Origin: a virus
Taxonomy: Duplodnaviria > Heunggongvirae > Uroviricota > Caudoviricetes > Schitoviridae
Length of the DNA stretch: 12,239 nt
Direction: 5' to 3' (one strand)
IMG/VR virus record: IMGVR_UViG_2974544868_000001
Coordinates: 64,001 to 76,239 of that record
This document shows positions 8,103 through 12,239 of the stretch, piece after piece; positions within the stretch are counted from its first letter, which is position 1; the number at the start of each line of letters is the position of its first letter. The notes beneath the pieces are model-generated. The model saw nothing but the letters and a program-made list of their open reading frames with translations. It was not told the DNA's origin and ran no database searches. Made by a program: the position numbers and the translations under genes.

Positions 8103-9698
8103 TCACACGACGTAGGAGTTGATAGGAAGCTCCTGTTCCGGAGCCTGTTCTAGTTCCCACCGATCCACTTCATCAGGGGTTGCCGGTGCCGATGCGGAAG
8201 GGAGCCATGGCTTGAAGTAGCCGAGCATGGAGATGGTGTCGATGCAATCGTCCTTTCCCTTGATGCCGGACTGGGTGACCAAACGGATCTGCCCCATGAA
8301 CAAGCCCATGATAACACTCTGCTTCAGTTCTTCAGGGAAGTACATCTTGCCAGCCTTGAACCAAGGCACGACCAGATTGAAGCGGGTCAGCTTGTCGGTG
8401 CTCGGACGGATACCCGGATCACCAGACTTGGAGTTGCTGGCGAAGTTGAACCAGATCTTCCGGTTCATCATCTCAGACTGGAGCCAGGTGATGAAGGCCG
8501 TCTGCTGGCCGCTGACCTCGATACCCACCTGCTGGGGTTCGTACATGGAGACGAACTTGAACAGCTGGTTGATGGACTCATCCATCGTGGTTCGCTTGGC
8601 AAAGCCATCCACCCAGAACCAGTCACCATTGTGGTTGACCGCCCAGACCGAGATCACGCTGTAGTCAGCCGTGGTCTTCTTGCTGGTGGCGAAGTCAGTG
8701 GTGATATAGAAGTTGAAGCTGCTCTTGTTCTCCAACAACTTAGCACGCGAGTACCACCGGATCTCGGCATCCTGCACAAGCCGTTCTTCTTCGGAGGTAA
8801 CACGGAGCATCAGCTCCTGCATGAAGCCTGCGACCTTGCCTGTACCCACTGCCAGCTTGTACTGGCTTTCGATGAAGTCGTAAGTGAATCGATCTTCCCA
8901 TGCACCACGGAACTCGGAACGCTCACAGGGGAATCGTTCGCAGACCGGATACACATTGACGTGCCACTCACCCGACTCGACCGCTTCTACGATCACGTCT
9001 TCCTTGTTGAATGGCGTACCGTTGAAGACGATCTTGCGGCGGGTAGGATCAAGCGCATGGTTCACACCGTTGTAGACCGTGTTCTTGATCGCATCCATGG
9101 CTGCCTTGGAGTTGGCATCGCCATCACCAATCAAGTCATCGAGCACACAGAACGTTGGACGCTTACCGAAGATCTTGGAACCACGGATACCAGTCTGTGC
9201 ACCAAACATCTTGACGCCCAGCTTGTGACCATCGACAGACTCAAACTCCAGATACGGATCAGTGAAGGTTGCCTTCTTGATCCAGCGCTGGAGGAATGGA
9301 CTGTTGTTGTAACGGAACTCGATGTTCTTGCGTGCATTCTTGACGCCGTTCTCCATCGAATCCGACACATAGATCATCGCTTCCACCTTTCCATGTCCGG
9401 GCAGATACCCGAACACTGCGAGGTAGAGCGTCATGTATTCCATGAACAACGTGGTCTTTGCAGCACCACGGAACAGCAGATTCACTAGGTAGTCGTGCGT
9501 GGACTGAGCCAGCTTGTCCAGCATCGCCAAGTGAACTGGGGGAGTCTTGTTTGACTCCCCCTGCTCTCCGTTCACCAGCTTGATGAACGTCATGAACTCC
9601 AGTGCAAATGTGGTCGGCACGTAGTCATTGCTGTTGAGGAAGCCGTAGTCGGCTTCATCCAACCAGTCTTCCAGTGACTTCTTACTGTTGGTCGTCAT
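8103..9698 (-). CDS. terL: Terminase large subunit (N4 gp68-like), about 531 aa
   Basis: Walker A-like FRGAAKTT, Walker B FCVLDDL, coupling motif FNGTPF, nuclease acidic residues YITTDFA and KDDCIDTISM. ATG at 9698 is preferred over the TTG at 9704. No intein or intron is evident. Confidence 0.95.
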   Translation of the reverse strand: MTTNSKKSLEDWLDEADYGFLNSNDYVPTTFALEFMTFIKLVNGEQGESNKTPPVHLAMLDKLAQSTHDYLVNLLFRGAAKTTLFMEYMTLYLAVFGYLPGHGKVEAMIYVSDSMENGVKNARKNIEFRYNNSPFLQRWIKKATFTDPYLEFESVDGHKLGVKMFGAQTGIRGSKIFGKRPTFCVLDDLIGDGDANSKAAMDAIKNTVYNGVNHALDPTRRKIVFNGTPFNKEDVIVEAVESGEWHVNVYPVCERFPCERSEFRGAWEDRFTYDFIESQYKLAVGTGKVAGFMQELMLRVTSEEERLVQDAEIRWYSRAKLLENKSSFNFYITTDFATSKKTTADYSVISVWAVNHNGDWFWVDGFAKRTTMDESINQLFKFVSMYEPQQVGIEVSGQQTAFITWLQSEMMNRKIWFNFASNSKSGDPGIRPSTDKLTRFNLVVPWFKAGKMYFPEELKQSVIMGLFMGQIRLVTQSGIKGKDDCIDTISMLGYFKPWLPSASAPATPDEVDRWELEQAPEQELPINSYVV

Positions 9699-10374
9699 GT
9701 TCAATCACTCGTGCCATGGACATCTCTGCAATCTTCTTGACTGGCATGCCCTCTGCAACCTGCTTCAGCTGAGCGTCTGCGAGGTCACGCATACCCTGAC
9801 GCAGTGCATCCAGACCCGTGTCAGTCACAGTGATGTTGACCAACGGAGCAACGTCCTTCGGCTTGTCAGTGTGAGCCAGTACGGAATTGGCAGCAGTCGT
9901 CTGCACCATCTCACTGGCCGAGTTCTCCATCAACCACAGCTGGCGATTCAATGCCTTCTGTCGTGCTTCCTGATTGATGAGCCAGAAAGGAATGAGTGAC
10001 TGCTCAAGGATGGCTTGAACCAGCTTGCCTTTGTGGTACATGGCCACGTAGGCAGAGATGGTTCGTGCATCCAGACCACGTGCAACCTGATCTGCATGAC
10101 GGGCAGGGAACGTCTTGGCGTAGGACTCGCCATTGCTGTAACCCATCATCTTGTAGGTGCAGTAGGTCACTGCATTGAGGTAGTCCTCTGTCTTGAACTT
10201 CCCTTCCTGTAGCACCTTGGTGTAGCTGATGAAGTTGTCCCGGACCACTTCTGCGATCTCAGGGTCAGCCACGATGTTGTTGATCTTGTCGGCGAACTCT
10301 TGGGTTGCCATCGAACGCAGGCTACGAGGCAATGCCTGCGCCAGCTGTTCCTGAGTCAAAAGTTCATTGCTCAT
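9682..10374 (-). CDS. N4 gp69-like protein, putative terminase small subunit, 230 aa
   Basis: Lies immediately upstream of and overlaps terL. HTH-like region (YLNAVTYCTYKMMGYSNGESYAKTFP); size and position match N4 gp69. The small-terminase function is inferred. Confidence 0.75.
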   Translation of the reverse strand: MSNELLTQEQLAQALPRSLRSMATQEFADKINNIVADPEIAEVVRDNFISYTKVLQEGKFKTEDYLNAVTYCTYKMMGYSNGESYAKTFPARHADQVARGLDARTISAYVAMYHKGKLVQAILEQSLIPFWLINQEARQKALNRQLWLMENSASEMVQTTAANSVLAHTDKPKDVAPLVNITVTDTGLDALRQGMRDLADAQLKQVAEGMPVKKIAEMSMARVIEHDDQQ

Positions 10375-10850
10375 TACTGTGCCTGCTGGCTCTTACGCTT
10401 ACCGTCTTCGTAAGCGATACGGGTGGTCAGGGCATTGAAGTAGGACTGCATAGCAGTGGCCTGCTGTTGCAGCAGCTGGAATTGGATGTCGTCCAGCTGG
10501 GTTGCCCCAGTCTGAAGGAAGCGCAGCAGACTGTTCAGACGGGCATTCAACTCATCGGCCTCATCCTTCATCCGGCCAAGGAAGTCCCTGTTCTCCGAGG
10601 CCAGACGATCAGCCAGCCGGAAGCCGAGGTAGGCCCAGACCTTCTTGACAGCTTCCTCTCGGGCGTACTTGTTGCCGATCTCAGCATTGAAGTTCTCCTT
10701 GCTGACACAGGCCGAGTGGCCATCGACAGTGAAGCCATTGTCCAGCGTCAGCTGGCAGATGGTGGTCCGCCCATCCGGCAGGACGGTGTAGGTCTCTTCA
10801 CGGATCGCAGCTTCGACCTGTTCGATGGTGACGCGGGGAGCACTGCTCAT
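10374..10850 (-). CDS. N4 Gp49/Sf6 Gp66-family domain fused to a C-terminal helical hairpin (crAss001_48-like), 158 aa
   Basis: Start at 10850 follows the AGGAAG SD; the ORF-track start at 11018 overlaps another gene. The N-domain VTIEQVEAAI...TTICQLTLDNGFTVDGHSACVSKENFNAEIG..YAREEAVKKVWAYLGFRL is the Gp49/66 signature. The C-domain is RMKDEADELNARLNSLLRFL...LLQQQATAMQSYFNALTTRI. Confidence 0.85.
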   Translation of the reverse strand: MSSAPRVTIEQVEAAIREETYTVLPDGRTTICQLTLDNGFTVDGHSACVSKENFNAEIGNKYAREEAVKKVWAYLGFRLADRLASENRDFLGRMKDEADELNARLNSLLRFLQTGATQLDDIQFQLLQQQATAMQSYFNALTTRIAYEDGKRKSQQAQ

Positions 10851-10864
10851 GATCTTCTTCCTAT

Positions 10865-11092
10865 TTAGATTTGACGAGCGGAGATGTGAAGCTGGTGGTC
10901 CAGCTCGTTCAGCTTCTTCTGAAGGGCAGCCTTCACCTCTTGGTTCCCGAGGTGCTGCTGATGCTGGATGTAGAAGTCCAGCTTGTGGTCGGCGATCACC
11001 TTCAGATGATCGACCCACTCCTGCTTGGCCTCTATATAAGGAATGGGCTTGATGTGGTCGTAGTCGCCTAACGGGTCTTCACGGGATGGCAT
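10865..11092 (-). CDS. Hypothetical protein, 75 aa, His-rich and predicted helical
   Basis: Fills the gap exactly between two copies of the junction motif; its own TAA is part of the next motif and it has an AGGAAG SD. Confidence 0.8.
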   Translation of the reverse strand: MPSREDPLGDYDHIKPIPYIEAKQEWVDHLKVIADHKLDFYIQHQQHLGNQEVKAALQKKLNELDHQLHISARQI

Positions 11093-11105
11093 GTCTTCTT
11101 CCTAT

Positions 11106-11429
11106 TTACAGTGAGGCAACGGTCTGCTTCTGGAAGTAGGCAGCGAGGTCGAACTCAAACCAGTCGTCCGCCAACAGATCGCCCGTGCTCGGCACCCAGA
11201 CACTGACCTTGCCCTGTGCATTCTTCAGGGCGAAGTAGCCCTCATAGGGAACCAAGTTCGAGGGGAACGCCAGCTTGGCTGCACCCGTCTGGGCCGGGTA
11301 CTCATTGGCCGGGACGTAATAGACGAACTGGTTCTCCCCGTTCCAACCCCGGCGACTCATCGCCAGATTCGCCTTGAGCTTGATCAGGGCGTATTCGAAC
11401 TGACCCTCAGATGCCATCTCAATGTTCAT
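11106..11429 (-). CDS. tad2: DUF2829-family protein (Thoeris anti-defence 2, Tad2-like), 107 aa
   Basis: FEYALIKLKANLAMSRRGWNGENQFVYYVPA...YFALKNAQGKVSVWVPSTGDLLADDW matches the DUF2829 pattern (F..AL..LK.G..V.R.GWNG.....W.PS..D.LA.DW). Start at 11429 follows the SD motif. Confidence 0.88.
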   Translation of the reverse strand: MNIEMASEGQFEYALIKLKANLAMSRRGWNGENQFVYYVPANEYPAQTGAAKLAFPSNLVPYEGYFALKNAQGKVSVWVPSTGDLLADDWFEFDLAAYFQKQTVASL

Positions 11430-11446
11430 GTTCTTCTTCTTCCTAT

Positions 11447-11614
11447 TTAGATCGCATAAGCGAAGGCTGCCACCAGAGCGGCAATGGCGATGGATACCCA
11501 CACGAAGGCTTGGGCATTCAAGACACGGACACGTGCCTCACTCTCGGCAAGACTCGCCTCATGGACTTCCTGCTCCATGCGGTTCGCCTCGTTGTACTCT
11601 TGATGGGTGAACAT
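11447..11614 (-). CDS. Small membrane protein, 55 aa (below the ORF-track cutoff)
   Basis: Manual translation: MFTHQEYNEANRMEQEVHEASLAESEARVRVLNAQAFVWVSIAIAALVAAFAYAI*. Acidic helical N-terminus and C-terminal TM helix. The stop TAA is part of the third junction motif, and the ATG is about 25 nt downstream of the predicted transcription start. Confidence 0.75.
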   Translation of the reverse strand: MFTHQEYNEANRMEQEVHEASLAESEARVRVLNAQAFVWVSIAIAALVAAFAYAI

Positions 11615-11645
11615 TGCTTCCGGCCTTGTGTTGGTTGGAGGCTAG

Positions 11646-11674
11646 ACTTTAGACTCCCCATAGGTAGATGACAA
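11646..11674 (-). promoter_or_regulatory. Sigma70-like promoter driving the accessory cassette and late operon
   Basis: Minus strand TTGTCA (11674-11669), 17-nt spacer, TAAAGT (11651-11646), positioned about 30 nt upstream of the first ATG (11614). Confidence 0.65.
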
Positions 11675-12038
11675 GACTACCCCCAATACCGAGAAGGATG
11701 GGGGTACGGGCAACCTATGCTGGTTCCCAAGGGGGGAACCAAGGAAGGGGGGAATCAGGCTCACAAACCTCTTCCAATTTGTCCTCACCTGTTCTACTCT
11801 TTCCCTGCACGCTGCGCTGCCCGTCACACTCGCTACGTGCTTGCTCCTAGTACCACCATGCGGAACCTTCTTCTTGGTTTCCAGTCAACCCTACCGGGCG
11901 TGGGGACAATAACCACCGGAGCTGGAGCTTCTGGCGTACCTCCTTCCAACAGAACAGCGTTGGTGCAACACAGACGGGATTCTGGTCCCGGCGAGTCAGA
12001 AGTGATCCAGTGGCAGAGCACACTGCCAGACCAAACAG

Positions 12039-12063
12039 ACCCCCGTCTTTACGGGGGTTTTTT
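12039..12063 (+). terminator. Rho-independent terminator on the plus strand
   Basis: ACCCCCGT-CTTT-ACGGGGGT followed by TTTTT; a perfect 8-bp stem plus U-tract. Confidence 0.85.
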
Positions 12064-12239
12064 ATATCCACCCTATCAACTTATGCTGGTAGAGCCTTAT
12101 CCAATTTACCCTCGCTAATTTTTTGGACATCGGGATTGAGATCACTCTCCCACCAAAGGTTATGTTGGTAGGAGAAGACATGAGGATGAGTTGGGGGAGG
12201 CATATGGAAGGTAGCTCAGCTATGTCTGAGTGAGGGTTT

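Follow-up and report, generated by a model that had tools for sequence, protein, structure and literature searches.

Upstream of the terminase genes of a 76-kb N4-like phage lies a cassette of four small genes, gA-gB-gC-gD, that is very likely a promoter-driven, accessory anti-signalling module leading into terS and terL, with gB (Tad2 family) and gD (an Acb4-Sequestin fusion) as its signal sponges. The source phage is a Pokkenvirus-like member of the Schitoviridae with a Stenotrophomonas host, and the window, that is, the whole stretch of 12,239 nucleotides analysed here, is the right end of its genome.

Layout of the cassette and its control signals

The original prediction was that four small genes share one promoter and a uniform junction design at the head of the packaging operon, and all of these elements are found in the DNA. 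The four ORFs are on the minus strand between 11614 and 10374, where that prediction had placed them and less than 2 kb from the right genome end, in the order gA (55 aa; 11447..11614), gB (107 aa; 11106..11429), gC (75 aa; 10865..11092), and gD (158 aa; 10374..10850). Wherever the same allele can be compared, dN/dS for all four cassette genes is 0.03-0.5; this is purifying selection, and they are therefore real genes. The stop codon of gD overlaps the ATG of terS by 1 nt (TAATG at 10374), and terS is translationally coupled to gD. The small terminase subunit encoded by terS (230 aa; 9682..10374, minus strand) matches phrog_2109 (E 5e-86) and is annotated as such in phages Piffle and Paxi. The end of terS is overlapped in turn by terL (8103..9704, minus strand), the large terminase subunit, which matches phrog_38 (E 8e-94) and Terminase_6C. 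We propose that the cassette runs unbroken into both terminase genes under one promoter.

A consensus scan revealed a single sigma-70-like site ahead of gA, TTGTCA-17-TAAAGT at 11674-11646 of the minus strand (-35 TTGTCA, 11674-11669; -10 TAAAGT, 11651-11646). It forms part of a conserved promoter block (11636..11720, minus strand), which also contains an upstream hairpin with the arms TACCCCCA (11706-11699) and TGGGGGTA (11685-11678). Some 75 nt of this block are near-invariant across six lineages, while the flanks have diverged; near-invariant copies stand in the window, Piffle, Paxi, RiverRider, L012, L016, and L019, and the first genes that follow them differ. The junctions within the cassette are equally uniform, with the exact 15-mer TAAATAGGAAGAAGA, a stop-plus-RBS module, standing at 11435-11449, 11094-11108, and 10853-10867 of the minus strand; at the first of these positions it combines the TAA stop of gA with the Shine-Dalgarno region ATAGGAAGAAGA. 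Three matches are to be compared with 0.10 expected by chance, and this number was reached in 0 of 200 shuffles. The whole 76,239-bp genome holds no further exact copy, and the 15-mer is kept at all three junctions in Piffle and Paxi.

Upstream, the cassette has a terminator-like boundary in the form of a G+C-rich hairpin (12037..12060), with a T-run on the plus strand and an A-run before it; a search of 11400-12239 against Rfam returned this terminator hairpin alone, below threshold. The region between hairpin and promoter (11675-12036) displays no codon bias (GC3 0.51), and its ORF calls differ between Piffle and Paxi. A tRNA scan found none, nor was a terminal repeat between the genome ends found in this record.

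Turnover of the cassette and the place of gA and gC

The terS-adjacent site is found again in six or more Schitoviridae genera. N4 itself has nothing upstream of terS; we found no description of this site in the literature. The cassette is an accessory, fast-turnover region with module exchange: genes are gained and lost between relatives, and replaced alleles (the Sequestin domain in Paxi, the centre of gC in Piffle) have 37-43% nucleotide identity within flanks that are ~90% identical. We also observed that an unnamed domain of ~70 aa (domain X) is fused to all three sponge families, and that it has no similarity to the N-terminal domain of RyR-Tad (CB1 gp68). For an OLIVR1 homologue that is labelled "putative structural protein", our literature search found no proteomic support for the label.

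The first gene of the cassette, gA, encodes an acidic N-terminal helix followed by a C-terminal transmembrane segment and is predicted to be a tail-anchored membrane protein. A search of Pfam, PHROG, and PADLOC gave no match. In L016 (47% identity, E 1.6e-12), L019, and RiverRider, a homologue likewise opens the cassette; gA has a dN/dS of 0.11-0.25. We considered and rejected a role as holin, because a complete lysis cassette is located elsewhere in Piffle.

The product of gC begins with the invariant peptide MPSxxDPxGxxDHxxPIP, is His-rich, and continues into a long helix (residues 19-74); since it is net acidic (charge -3) and modelled as a single long helix, it does not look like a sponge. 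Comparison with the PDB gave no fold match and no sequence or profile match, and the ESM Atlas gave nothing usable for either gA or gC. The family is rare and mosaic, with its centre swapped between alleles; an exhaustive HMMER search of 1.8 billion representatives recovered five clusters only.

Most likely, the island has in gA and gC two more accessory factors for interaction with the host. We lean slightly toward the view that anti-defence is the business of gB and gD only, and that gA and gC are unrelated accessory genes (e.g., a superinfection-exclusion or membrane-remodelling peptide, or a packaging or assembly helper) sharing the promoter since the genome end tolerates insertions. Neither protein has similarity to any defence or anti-defence family in Pfam, PHROG (including its function classes), PADLOC, the PDB, or the Atlas, and the gC helix offers no pocket-forming fold. 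In addition, L011 carries gC directly ahead of terS without the Acb4-Sequestin gene, and other cassettes hold assorted unannotated genes (62-aa and 63-aa coiled coils, 89-aa and 127-aa proteins, and phrog_32645). Against this view, gA-type proteins, as called, are present in all cassette lineages that bear Tad2 (6 of 6) and in none of those that lack it (0 of 6), and the relatives of gC lie inside such cassettes in every context recovered. The swapping of gC alleles is, furthermore, typical of arms-race genes, and gA, with lysis genes elsewhere, is no holin.

Guilt by association suggests that at least one of the two may be a counter-defence protein, because both are confined to cassettes of this sort, gA accompanies Tad2, and the gC family is mosaic; we put the chance of this somewhat below even. 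Such a protein would probably target a membrane or protein effector instead of serving as a sponge. Rather unlikely, in our estimation, is the broader proposal that the terS site is a second, undescribed anti-signalling island of the Schitoviridae, late-timed and with at least one orphan (gA or gC) that is a counter-defence factor of a new type. Were it true, the target to be blocked might be a membrane effector (ThsA of type II Thoeris, or the transmembrane effectors of Pycsar or CBASS); alternatively, the factor might protect the phage against systems that sense sponges, Panoptes for example.

The putative sponge genes gD and gB

The Pfam searches bore out the families that had been named for the cassette, with matches to PF11195, PF13876, and PF21825, each of which has a single copy in the genome, all within the cassette; PADLOC gave a sub-threshold match for gD and nothing for the other three proteins. 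In gD, an Acb4 domain (residues 7-82; 10605..10832, minus strand; PF13876, E 8.5e-26, 90.7 bits, cut-off 27) is followed by a Sequestin domain (residues 89-146; 10413..10586, minus strand; PF21825 or crAss001_48, E 2.3e-15, 56.7 bits, cut-off 24.8). The link between Gp49/66 and Acb4 that the original prediction had made is correct, as PF13876 (Phage_gp49_66) is defined as the Acb4 family by Chang et al. (10.1101/2024.12.30.630793). The "second small domain" that it had seen fused to this one is the PF21825 domain, now named Sequestin in the literature and described as a 3'cADPR sponge; gD is therefore a putative dual sponge.

The structural model of gD (pLDDT 89) contains the alpha-beta3-alpha fold of Acb4, and its 13 best PDB matches are all SPO1 Acb4, 9e4w (TM 0.65-0.76 by target, rmsd 1.4-3.4 A, 32-34% identity), which gD also matches by sequence. 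Among the residues with which SPO1 Acb4 contacts 3'3'-cGAMP, those retained are R28 (for K36), F40 (F48), F54 (F62), N55 (N63), and I58 (I66), and those altered are E49 (T41 in gD), V56 (C48), Y57 (V49), T70 (Y62), and K81 (A73), so the ligand preference of gD is uncertain. All eight Acb4 homologues tested by Chang et al. bound 3'3'-cGAMP, and those from phages of Gram-negative hosts bound cGAMP and cAA (10.1101/2024.12.30.630793). By homology, the Acb4 part of gD would assemble into a tetramer and act as a sponge for the cyclic dinucleotides of CBASS (3'3'-cGAMP, cUA, and cAA, for example).

The Sequestin domain is modelled as a helical hairpin (helices 90-114 and 121-157, pLDDT ~90). Its R93, E97, Q130, and R144 align with R8, E12, Q47, and R61 of SequestinA, with matching spacing (4, 33, 14); across 33 fusion homologues, E97, Q130, and R144 do not vary, and the conservation of R93 is 90% or higher. 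In Sequestin, E12, Q47, and R61 are required for activity, and type I Thoeris is inhibited by 10 of 13 PF21825 proteins. A search of PDB sequences with this domain returned only coiled-coil noise. We infer that it would act as a helical-hairpin dimer that sequesters the 3'cADPR of type I Thoeris.

One may ask whether a gene so placed is mainly a packaging or nucleic-acid-handling helper, with sponge activity secondary or absent. PF13876 has a fold that resembles dsRNA-binding domains, terS is directly preceded by a PF13876 gene in at least six genera of the family, with translational coupling between the two here, and some ligand contacts of SPO1 Acb4 are altered in gD. A tie to packaging is nevertheless hard to reconcile with N4 and the Migulavirinae, in which the Acb4 gene is elsewhere (N4 having no gene before terS), or with L011, which has no PF13876 gene at all. 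The cGAMP binding of every homologue tested, the proven sponge activity of the fusion of N4-like Ab09, and the fusion to another sponge domain with intact functional residues also argue against it, and we give this explanation a slim chance.

The product of gB matches the Tad2-like family PF11195 over residues 10-91 (E 6.8e-19, 68.6 bits, cut-off 25; Pfam, confirmed on the genome), as had been predicted for a DUF2829 protein, and it matches solved Tad2 structures: ModTad2 (9eib/8v3e) with E 4e-17 and ~44% identity over 80 residues, and SPO1 Tad2 with E 4e-9 in the PDB sequence search. In the HMMER alignments, W29, N30, W78, S81, and D84 of gB correspond to W25, N26, W73, S76, and D79 of the gcADPR pocket of SPO1 Tad2, from which gB differs at T78 (Gly) and H71 (Ser). 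It is highly improbable that gB is instead an AcrIIA7-like anti-CRISPR, a label that some phage records give to its relatives and that appears among its PDB matches (AcrIIA7, "Inhibitor of Type II CRISPR-Cas system", E ~1e-6), since gB matches the sponges ModTad2 and SPO1 Tad2 far more strongly, the pocket residues are kept, the entries of the 8kbi series, which bear the CRISPR-inhibitor label, seem to represent the HgmTad2 sponge, and Yirmiya et al. argue that DUF2829 proteins are anti-Thoeris and not anti-CRISPR. By homology, then, gB would be a tetramer that sequesters ADPR-type signals made by TIR proteins.

Acting together, gB and gD would weaken signalling by Thoeris, CBASS, and perhaps also Pycsar. 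In a sample of the host genus, the SMODS CD-NTase domain was present in 11 of 101 genomes and the ThsB-TIR domain in 7 of 101. As read from the sequence, the phage would stack three signal-sponge domains within ~800 bp that connect directly to the genes for packaging. The cassette would stand at the head of a host-RNAP operon that, by analogy with N4, would be expressed late, and from this position we infer that the sponges would accumulate alongside the structural proteins that trigger these signalling systems. Sponges are usually held, in published discussion, to need early expression, and a late-operon position would be unusual for them.

The terS site recurs in many N4-like phages and is therefore a second place to mine, beside the primase-to-vRNAP hot spot; candidate new anti-defence genes are gA, gC, phrog_32645, and domain X. 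Because N4-like phages that infect Stenotrophomonas, Achromobacter, and Pseudomonas are candidates for phage therapy, knowledge of their anti-defence load would help to predict host range.

Comparison with known anti-signalling proteins and loci

Earlier work has described the sponge families, the fusion of Acb4 to Sequestin, and the way in which sponge genes group together in N4-like phages (Tal et al. 2025; Fedorova et al. 2026). The nearest characterised relative of gB is, by sequence, the His-ADPR/cUMP sponge ModTad2 (MoTad2; PDB 8V3E, 9EIB), which binds His-ADPR of type II Thoeris as well as cUMP and cCMP of Pycsar. The two align essentially without gaps over 80 residues and have the pocket of Trp, Asn, Trp, Ser, and Asp in common, whereas gB has extensions of ~10 residues at the N-terminus and ~17 at the C-terminus. 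Function varies widely within the Tad2 family (gcADPR, His-ADPR, N7-cADPR, cyclic dinucleotides, and cUMP), and the identity to ModTad2 therefore does not fix the ligand of gB.

With SPO1 Acb4 (9E4W), gD shares the fold (TM up to 0.76), the adenine-pocket motif ENFNxEIG, and the stacking Phe. It differs in the guanine-reading Glu49, which is a Thr that is invariant in the gD clade, in the phosphate contacts Y57, T70, and K81, and in its fused Sequestin domain. Closer to gD is the fusion of Ab09 (gp59) and Pseudomonas phage YH6, likewise N4-like, with the same domain order and size (Acb4 ~1-83 and Sequestin ~84-147) and the key Sequestin residues; Ab09 gp59 is a sponge that binds both gcADPR and cGAMP and gives protection to an N4-like phage (10.64898/2026.06.04.730250; 10.1101/2025.07.12.664507). 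That fusion, however, is located between SSB and the virion RNA polymerase, whereas gD is at the far right end of the genome and coupled to terS.

The published fusion and clustering locus extends from the primase-polymerase to the virion RNA polymerase (Fedorova et al. 2026, 10.64898/2026.06.04.730250), and in Piffle, a close relative, nothing but SSB, a RuvC-like gene, and one unannotated gene occupies this canonical site. Like that hot spot, the cassette is a compact island of Tad2, Acb4, Sequestin, and small unannotated genes with rapid turnover. It lies upstream of terS rather than in the position that defines the hot spot, belongs to a different predicted transcription class (the head of the terS-terL late operon), and is further set apart by a conserved promoter block of its own and by the stop-plus-RBS module repeated at its junctions.

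A Constrained Gene Cassette at the Head of the Terminase Genes

The window occupies the right end (bases 64001-76239) of the 76,239-bp record and shares ~90% DNA identity with Piffle and Paxi, two Stenotrophomonas phages of the genus Pokkenvirus (Schitoviridae). All genes of interest lie on the minus strand and run leftward into the small and large terminase genes, terS (9682-10374) and terL (8103-9704). The four small genes of the original prediction were found as ORFs at 11614..10374, namely gA (11614..11447, 55 aa), gB (11429..11106, 107 aa), gC (11092..10865, 75 aa), and gD (10850..10374, 158 aa), with the stop codon of gD and the ATG of terS having one base in common (TAATG). Pairwise comparison of three close phages, using matching alleles, gave dN/dS values of 0.03-0.25 for gA, gB, and both domains of gD, and ~0.4-0.5 for gC, versus 0.02-0.06 for terS and terL; all four should therefore be regarded as genuine, constrained genes.

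A uniform junction design and a single shared promoter had also been proposed, and both are borne out. The exact 15-mer TAAATAGGAAGAAGA, a TAA stop plus a Shine–Dalgarno region with the next ATG 1-5 nt downstream, is present at all three internal junctions (three copies observed, 0.10 expected by chance), and no further exact copy was found across the whole 76,239-bp genome. The module is retained at 3/3 junctions in Piffle and Paxi, and more distant relatives possess degenerate forms (TAAATAGGAG...). One sigma-70-like site (TTGTCA, 17 nt, TAAAGT; minus strand, 11674-11646) precedes gA, inside a block of ~75 nt that is near-invariant in the window, Piffle, Paxi, and RiverRider, as well as in three loci from metagenomes (L012, L016, and L019). 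The DNA around this block has diverged, and L012 carries a different first gene behind it.

Just upstream of the -35 element is an 8-bp hairpin (TACCCCCA / TGGGGGTA, 13-nt loop, 11678-11706), which is conserved along with the promoter and could serve to regulate late transcription from it; in L019, an A:T pair has become G:C on both arms, and in L016 the hairpin is less well kept. A strong hairpin terminator (12037-12060) is followed by ~360 nt before the cassette promoter (stretch 11675-12060). Here, there is no codon bias (GC3 0.51), a search of Rfam returned nothing above threshold, and the Piffle and Paxi annotations record conflicting ORFs on opposite strands; the stretch is, therefore, probably non-coding.

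Known Sponge Families in gB and gD

The assignment of gB to DUF2829/Tad2 holds, with a match to Pfam Tad2-like PF11195 at 68.6 bits (cut-off 25) and matches to solved Tad2 structures. The closest of these is ModTad2 (8V3E/9EIB; E 4e-17, ~44% identity), then SPO1 Tad2 (E 4e-9), followed by HgmTad2, SptTad2, and AcrIIA7. SPO1 Tad2 holds gcADPR with W25, N26, W73, S76, and D79, and gB has the corresponding residues W29, N30, W78, S81, and D84. ModTad2 sequesters the His-ADPR of type II Thoeris, a second ModTad2 pocket binds Pycsar cUMP/cCMP, and the family is very plastic in ligand choice. Family and mechanism can be assigned to gB with confidence, an assignment that leaves out the ligand.

The N4 Gp49/Sf6 Gp66 domain of gD (PF13876, residues 7-82, 90.7 bits) does belong to the anticipated Acb4 family, as which PF13876 was identified by Chang et al., who found that 8/8 purified homologues bound 3'3'-cGAMP and that homologues whose source phages infect Gram-negative bacteria bound 3'3'-cAA as well (10.1101/2024.12.30.630793). 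The sequence of gD matches that of Acb4 (9e4w; E 7e-5), and the 13 best PDB matches of its AlphaFold model (33 homologues, pLDDT 89) are all 9e4w (TM 0.65-0.76 by target, rmsd 1.4-3.4 A). Five of the ten ligand contacts of SPO1 Acb4 are unchanged or conservatively substituted in gD (R28, F40, F54, N55, and I58) and five differ (T41, C48, V49, Y62, and A73); the base preference of gD may therefore differ from that of SPO1 Acb4.

The second small domain that had been noticed in gD is PF21825 (residues 89-146, 56.7 bits), that is, Sequestin, a 3'cADPR sponge that was discovered precisely through its fusions to Tad2 or Acb4. Type I Thoeris is inhibited by 10/13 PF21825 members, and activity needs E12, Q47, and R61. 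In gD, R93, E97, Q130, and R144 match Sequestin functional residues with the same spacing, the last three being invariant among 33 fusion proteins. With Tad2 in gB, and Acb4 and Sequestin in gD, the cassette thus holds three known sponge domains in two genes, and these are the only copies of the three families in the genome.

An unnamed domain of ~70 aa, domain X, follows Acb4 or separates it from Sequestin (L012:1369-1881, protein P0032 residues ~98-168; Philippe gp098, L008:955-1638; L014:3501-4214) and is N-terminal in the PHROG profiles phrog_872 (with Tad2), phrog_9467 (with Acb4), and phrog_32732 (with Sequestin). It is carried by 124 phage records, sequence searches of Pfam and the PDB gave no match for it, and it shows no similarity to the RyR-Tad N-terminal domain. 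Because it is fused to all three of these sponge families, the same fusion logic that uncovered Sequestin, domain X is a candidate further anti-signaling domain. In a non-N4 phage contig (L015:3501-4162), a stand-alone Acb4 (96 aa) adjoins a 123-aa protein with an RyR domain, the family to which RyR-Tad, a sponge described recently, belongs; judged by family, this is another case of adjacent sponge genes.

The Genes gA and gC, and Module Exchange

gA comprises an acidic helix and a C-terminal membrane segment preceded by Arg residues, which by the positive-inside rule would place its N-terminus in the cytoplasm as a tail-anchored protein. Family/profile and fold-database searches gave no family match. 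Clear homologues open the cassettes of L016 (47% identity, E 1.6e-12), L019, and RiverRider, and L014 and Philippe encode proteins of the same build. With genes as called, a gA-type protein is present in 6/6 Tad2-bearing cassette lineages and 0/6 Tad2-less ones; gA and Tad2 are neighbors in lineages that are themselves related, so this is a lead and not a statistic. A role as holin was rejected, a full lysis cassette being located elsewhere in Piffle.

Relatives of gC form only five clusters among 1.8 billion representative proteins, and all recovered contexts are within sponge cassettes. Its first 18 residues follow an invariant pattern (MPSxxDPxGxxDHxxPIP), the remainder is modeled as a single 56-residue helix (pLDDT 88), and its net charge is acidic. 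Structure and sequence searches of the PDB returned no fold or sequence match. gC does not look like a sponge and is more plausibly an inhibitor or adaptor that binds a protein.

The cassette also turns over. Piffle possesses an extra 81-aa gene, gp091 (L001:5372-5617; phrog_32645), 73% identical to RiverRider gp92 (L006:2380-2619). In both phages, the gene sits between Acb4-Sequestin and terS; the Piffle copy is inserted precisely at the start codon of terS, with the first three codons duplicated. The gene is absent from the window and Paxi. The L011 locus is without Acb4-Sequestin, and in L012 Sequestin and Acb4 are separate genes in reversed order. The Paxi Sequestin domain has only 37-40% DNA identity to other alleles between flanks that are ~90% identical, and the central 44 codons of Piffle gC are only 43% identical. 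Both synonymous and non-synonymous sites are saturated here, which indicates replacement of modules by recombination, not drift by point mutation; crossovers may plausibly have been anchored by the invariant junction modules and the conserved ends of the genes. In the N4-like contig L019 (1850-2499), two genes (89 and 127 aa), without Pfam match, separate Tad2 from Acb4-Sequestin.

Proposed Working and Comparison with Known Islands

Host RNA polymerase would start near 11639 and make a single transcript of gA, gB, gC, gD, terS, and terL. Short stop-plus-RBS junctions of identical sequence, together with the TAATG overlap, would promote coupled translation. Oligomers of Tad2, Acb4, and Sequestin would sequester TIR-derived and CD-NTase-derived signals, so that Thoeris, CBASS, and possibly Pycsar effectors would stay inactive. 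The late genes of N4 are transcribed by host RNA polymerase with the phage SSB, which is retained in the Pokkenvirus-type group (Piffle), and by analogy the cassette would be expressed late. Sponge synthesis would then coincide with that of the structural proteins, which in related phages reportedly include the tail-fiber triggers of type II Thoeris; however, one usually expects sponges to be made early, which conflicts with late timing. Both kinds of target system are present in the host genus: among 101 genomes sampled from the genus of the Stenotrophomonas MAG with locus L023, a SMODS domain is found in 11 and a ThsB-TIR domain in 7.

Sponge genes recur directly upstream of terS in many phages and loci, in these gene orders: a 51-aa TM protein, a 62-aa protein, Tad2, Acb4-Sequestin, and a 79-aa protein in RiverRider; a 53-aa protein, Tad2, a 54-aa TM protein, and Acb4-X-Sequestin in Philippe; a 63-aa protein and Acb4-Sequestin in Achromobacter Axy04; Acb4-Sequestin in Agrobacterium OLIVR1; Acb4 in Erwinia phiEaP8; and variants of the same layout in metagenomic L012, L014, L016, L019, L020, and L021. 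N4 has no gene at the corresponding place.

The original observation is thus confirmed, and its anti-defense interpretation is supported for two of the four genes, gB and gD. The value of the cassette lies in its leads: gA, gC, phrog_32645, and domain X.

In N4-like phages, the published anti-signaling hot spot is flanked by the primase-polymerase and virion RNA polymerase genes (10.64898/2026.06.04.730250), whereas the sponge genes here are directly upstream of terS, a site for which our literature search found no describing paper. In Piffle, the hot-spot site (L013, Piffle 39843-41590) contains only SSB, a RuvC-like resolvase gene, and one 148-aa unknown. Since Bes1, through which Ab09 evades CBASS and Thoeris, belongs to the RuvC-like family, the anti-signaling load of Pokkenvirus-type phages may be split between two sites. 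As in gD, gp59 of the N4-like Pseudomonas phage Ab09 is an Acb4-Sequestin fusion; it is a tetramer with tight binding of gcADPR and weaker binding of cGAMP, and it protects the phage (10.64898/2026.06.04.730250; 10.1101/2025.07.12.664507). The families and this fusion are already known, as is the clustering of sponge genes in N4-like phages. The undescribed part is the second site: next to terS, an island of a known kind has a new location, and the kind of system is not new.
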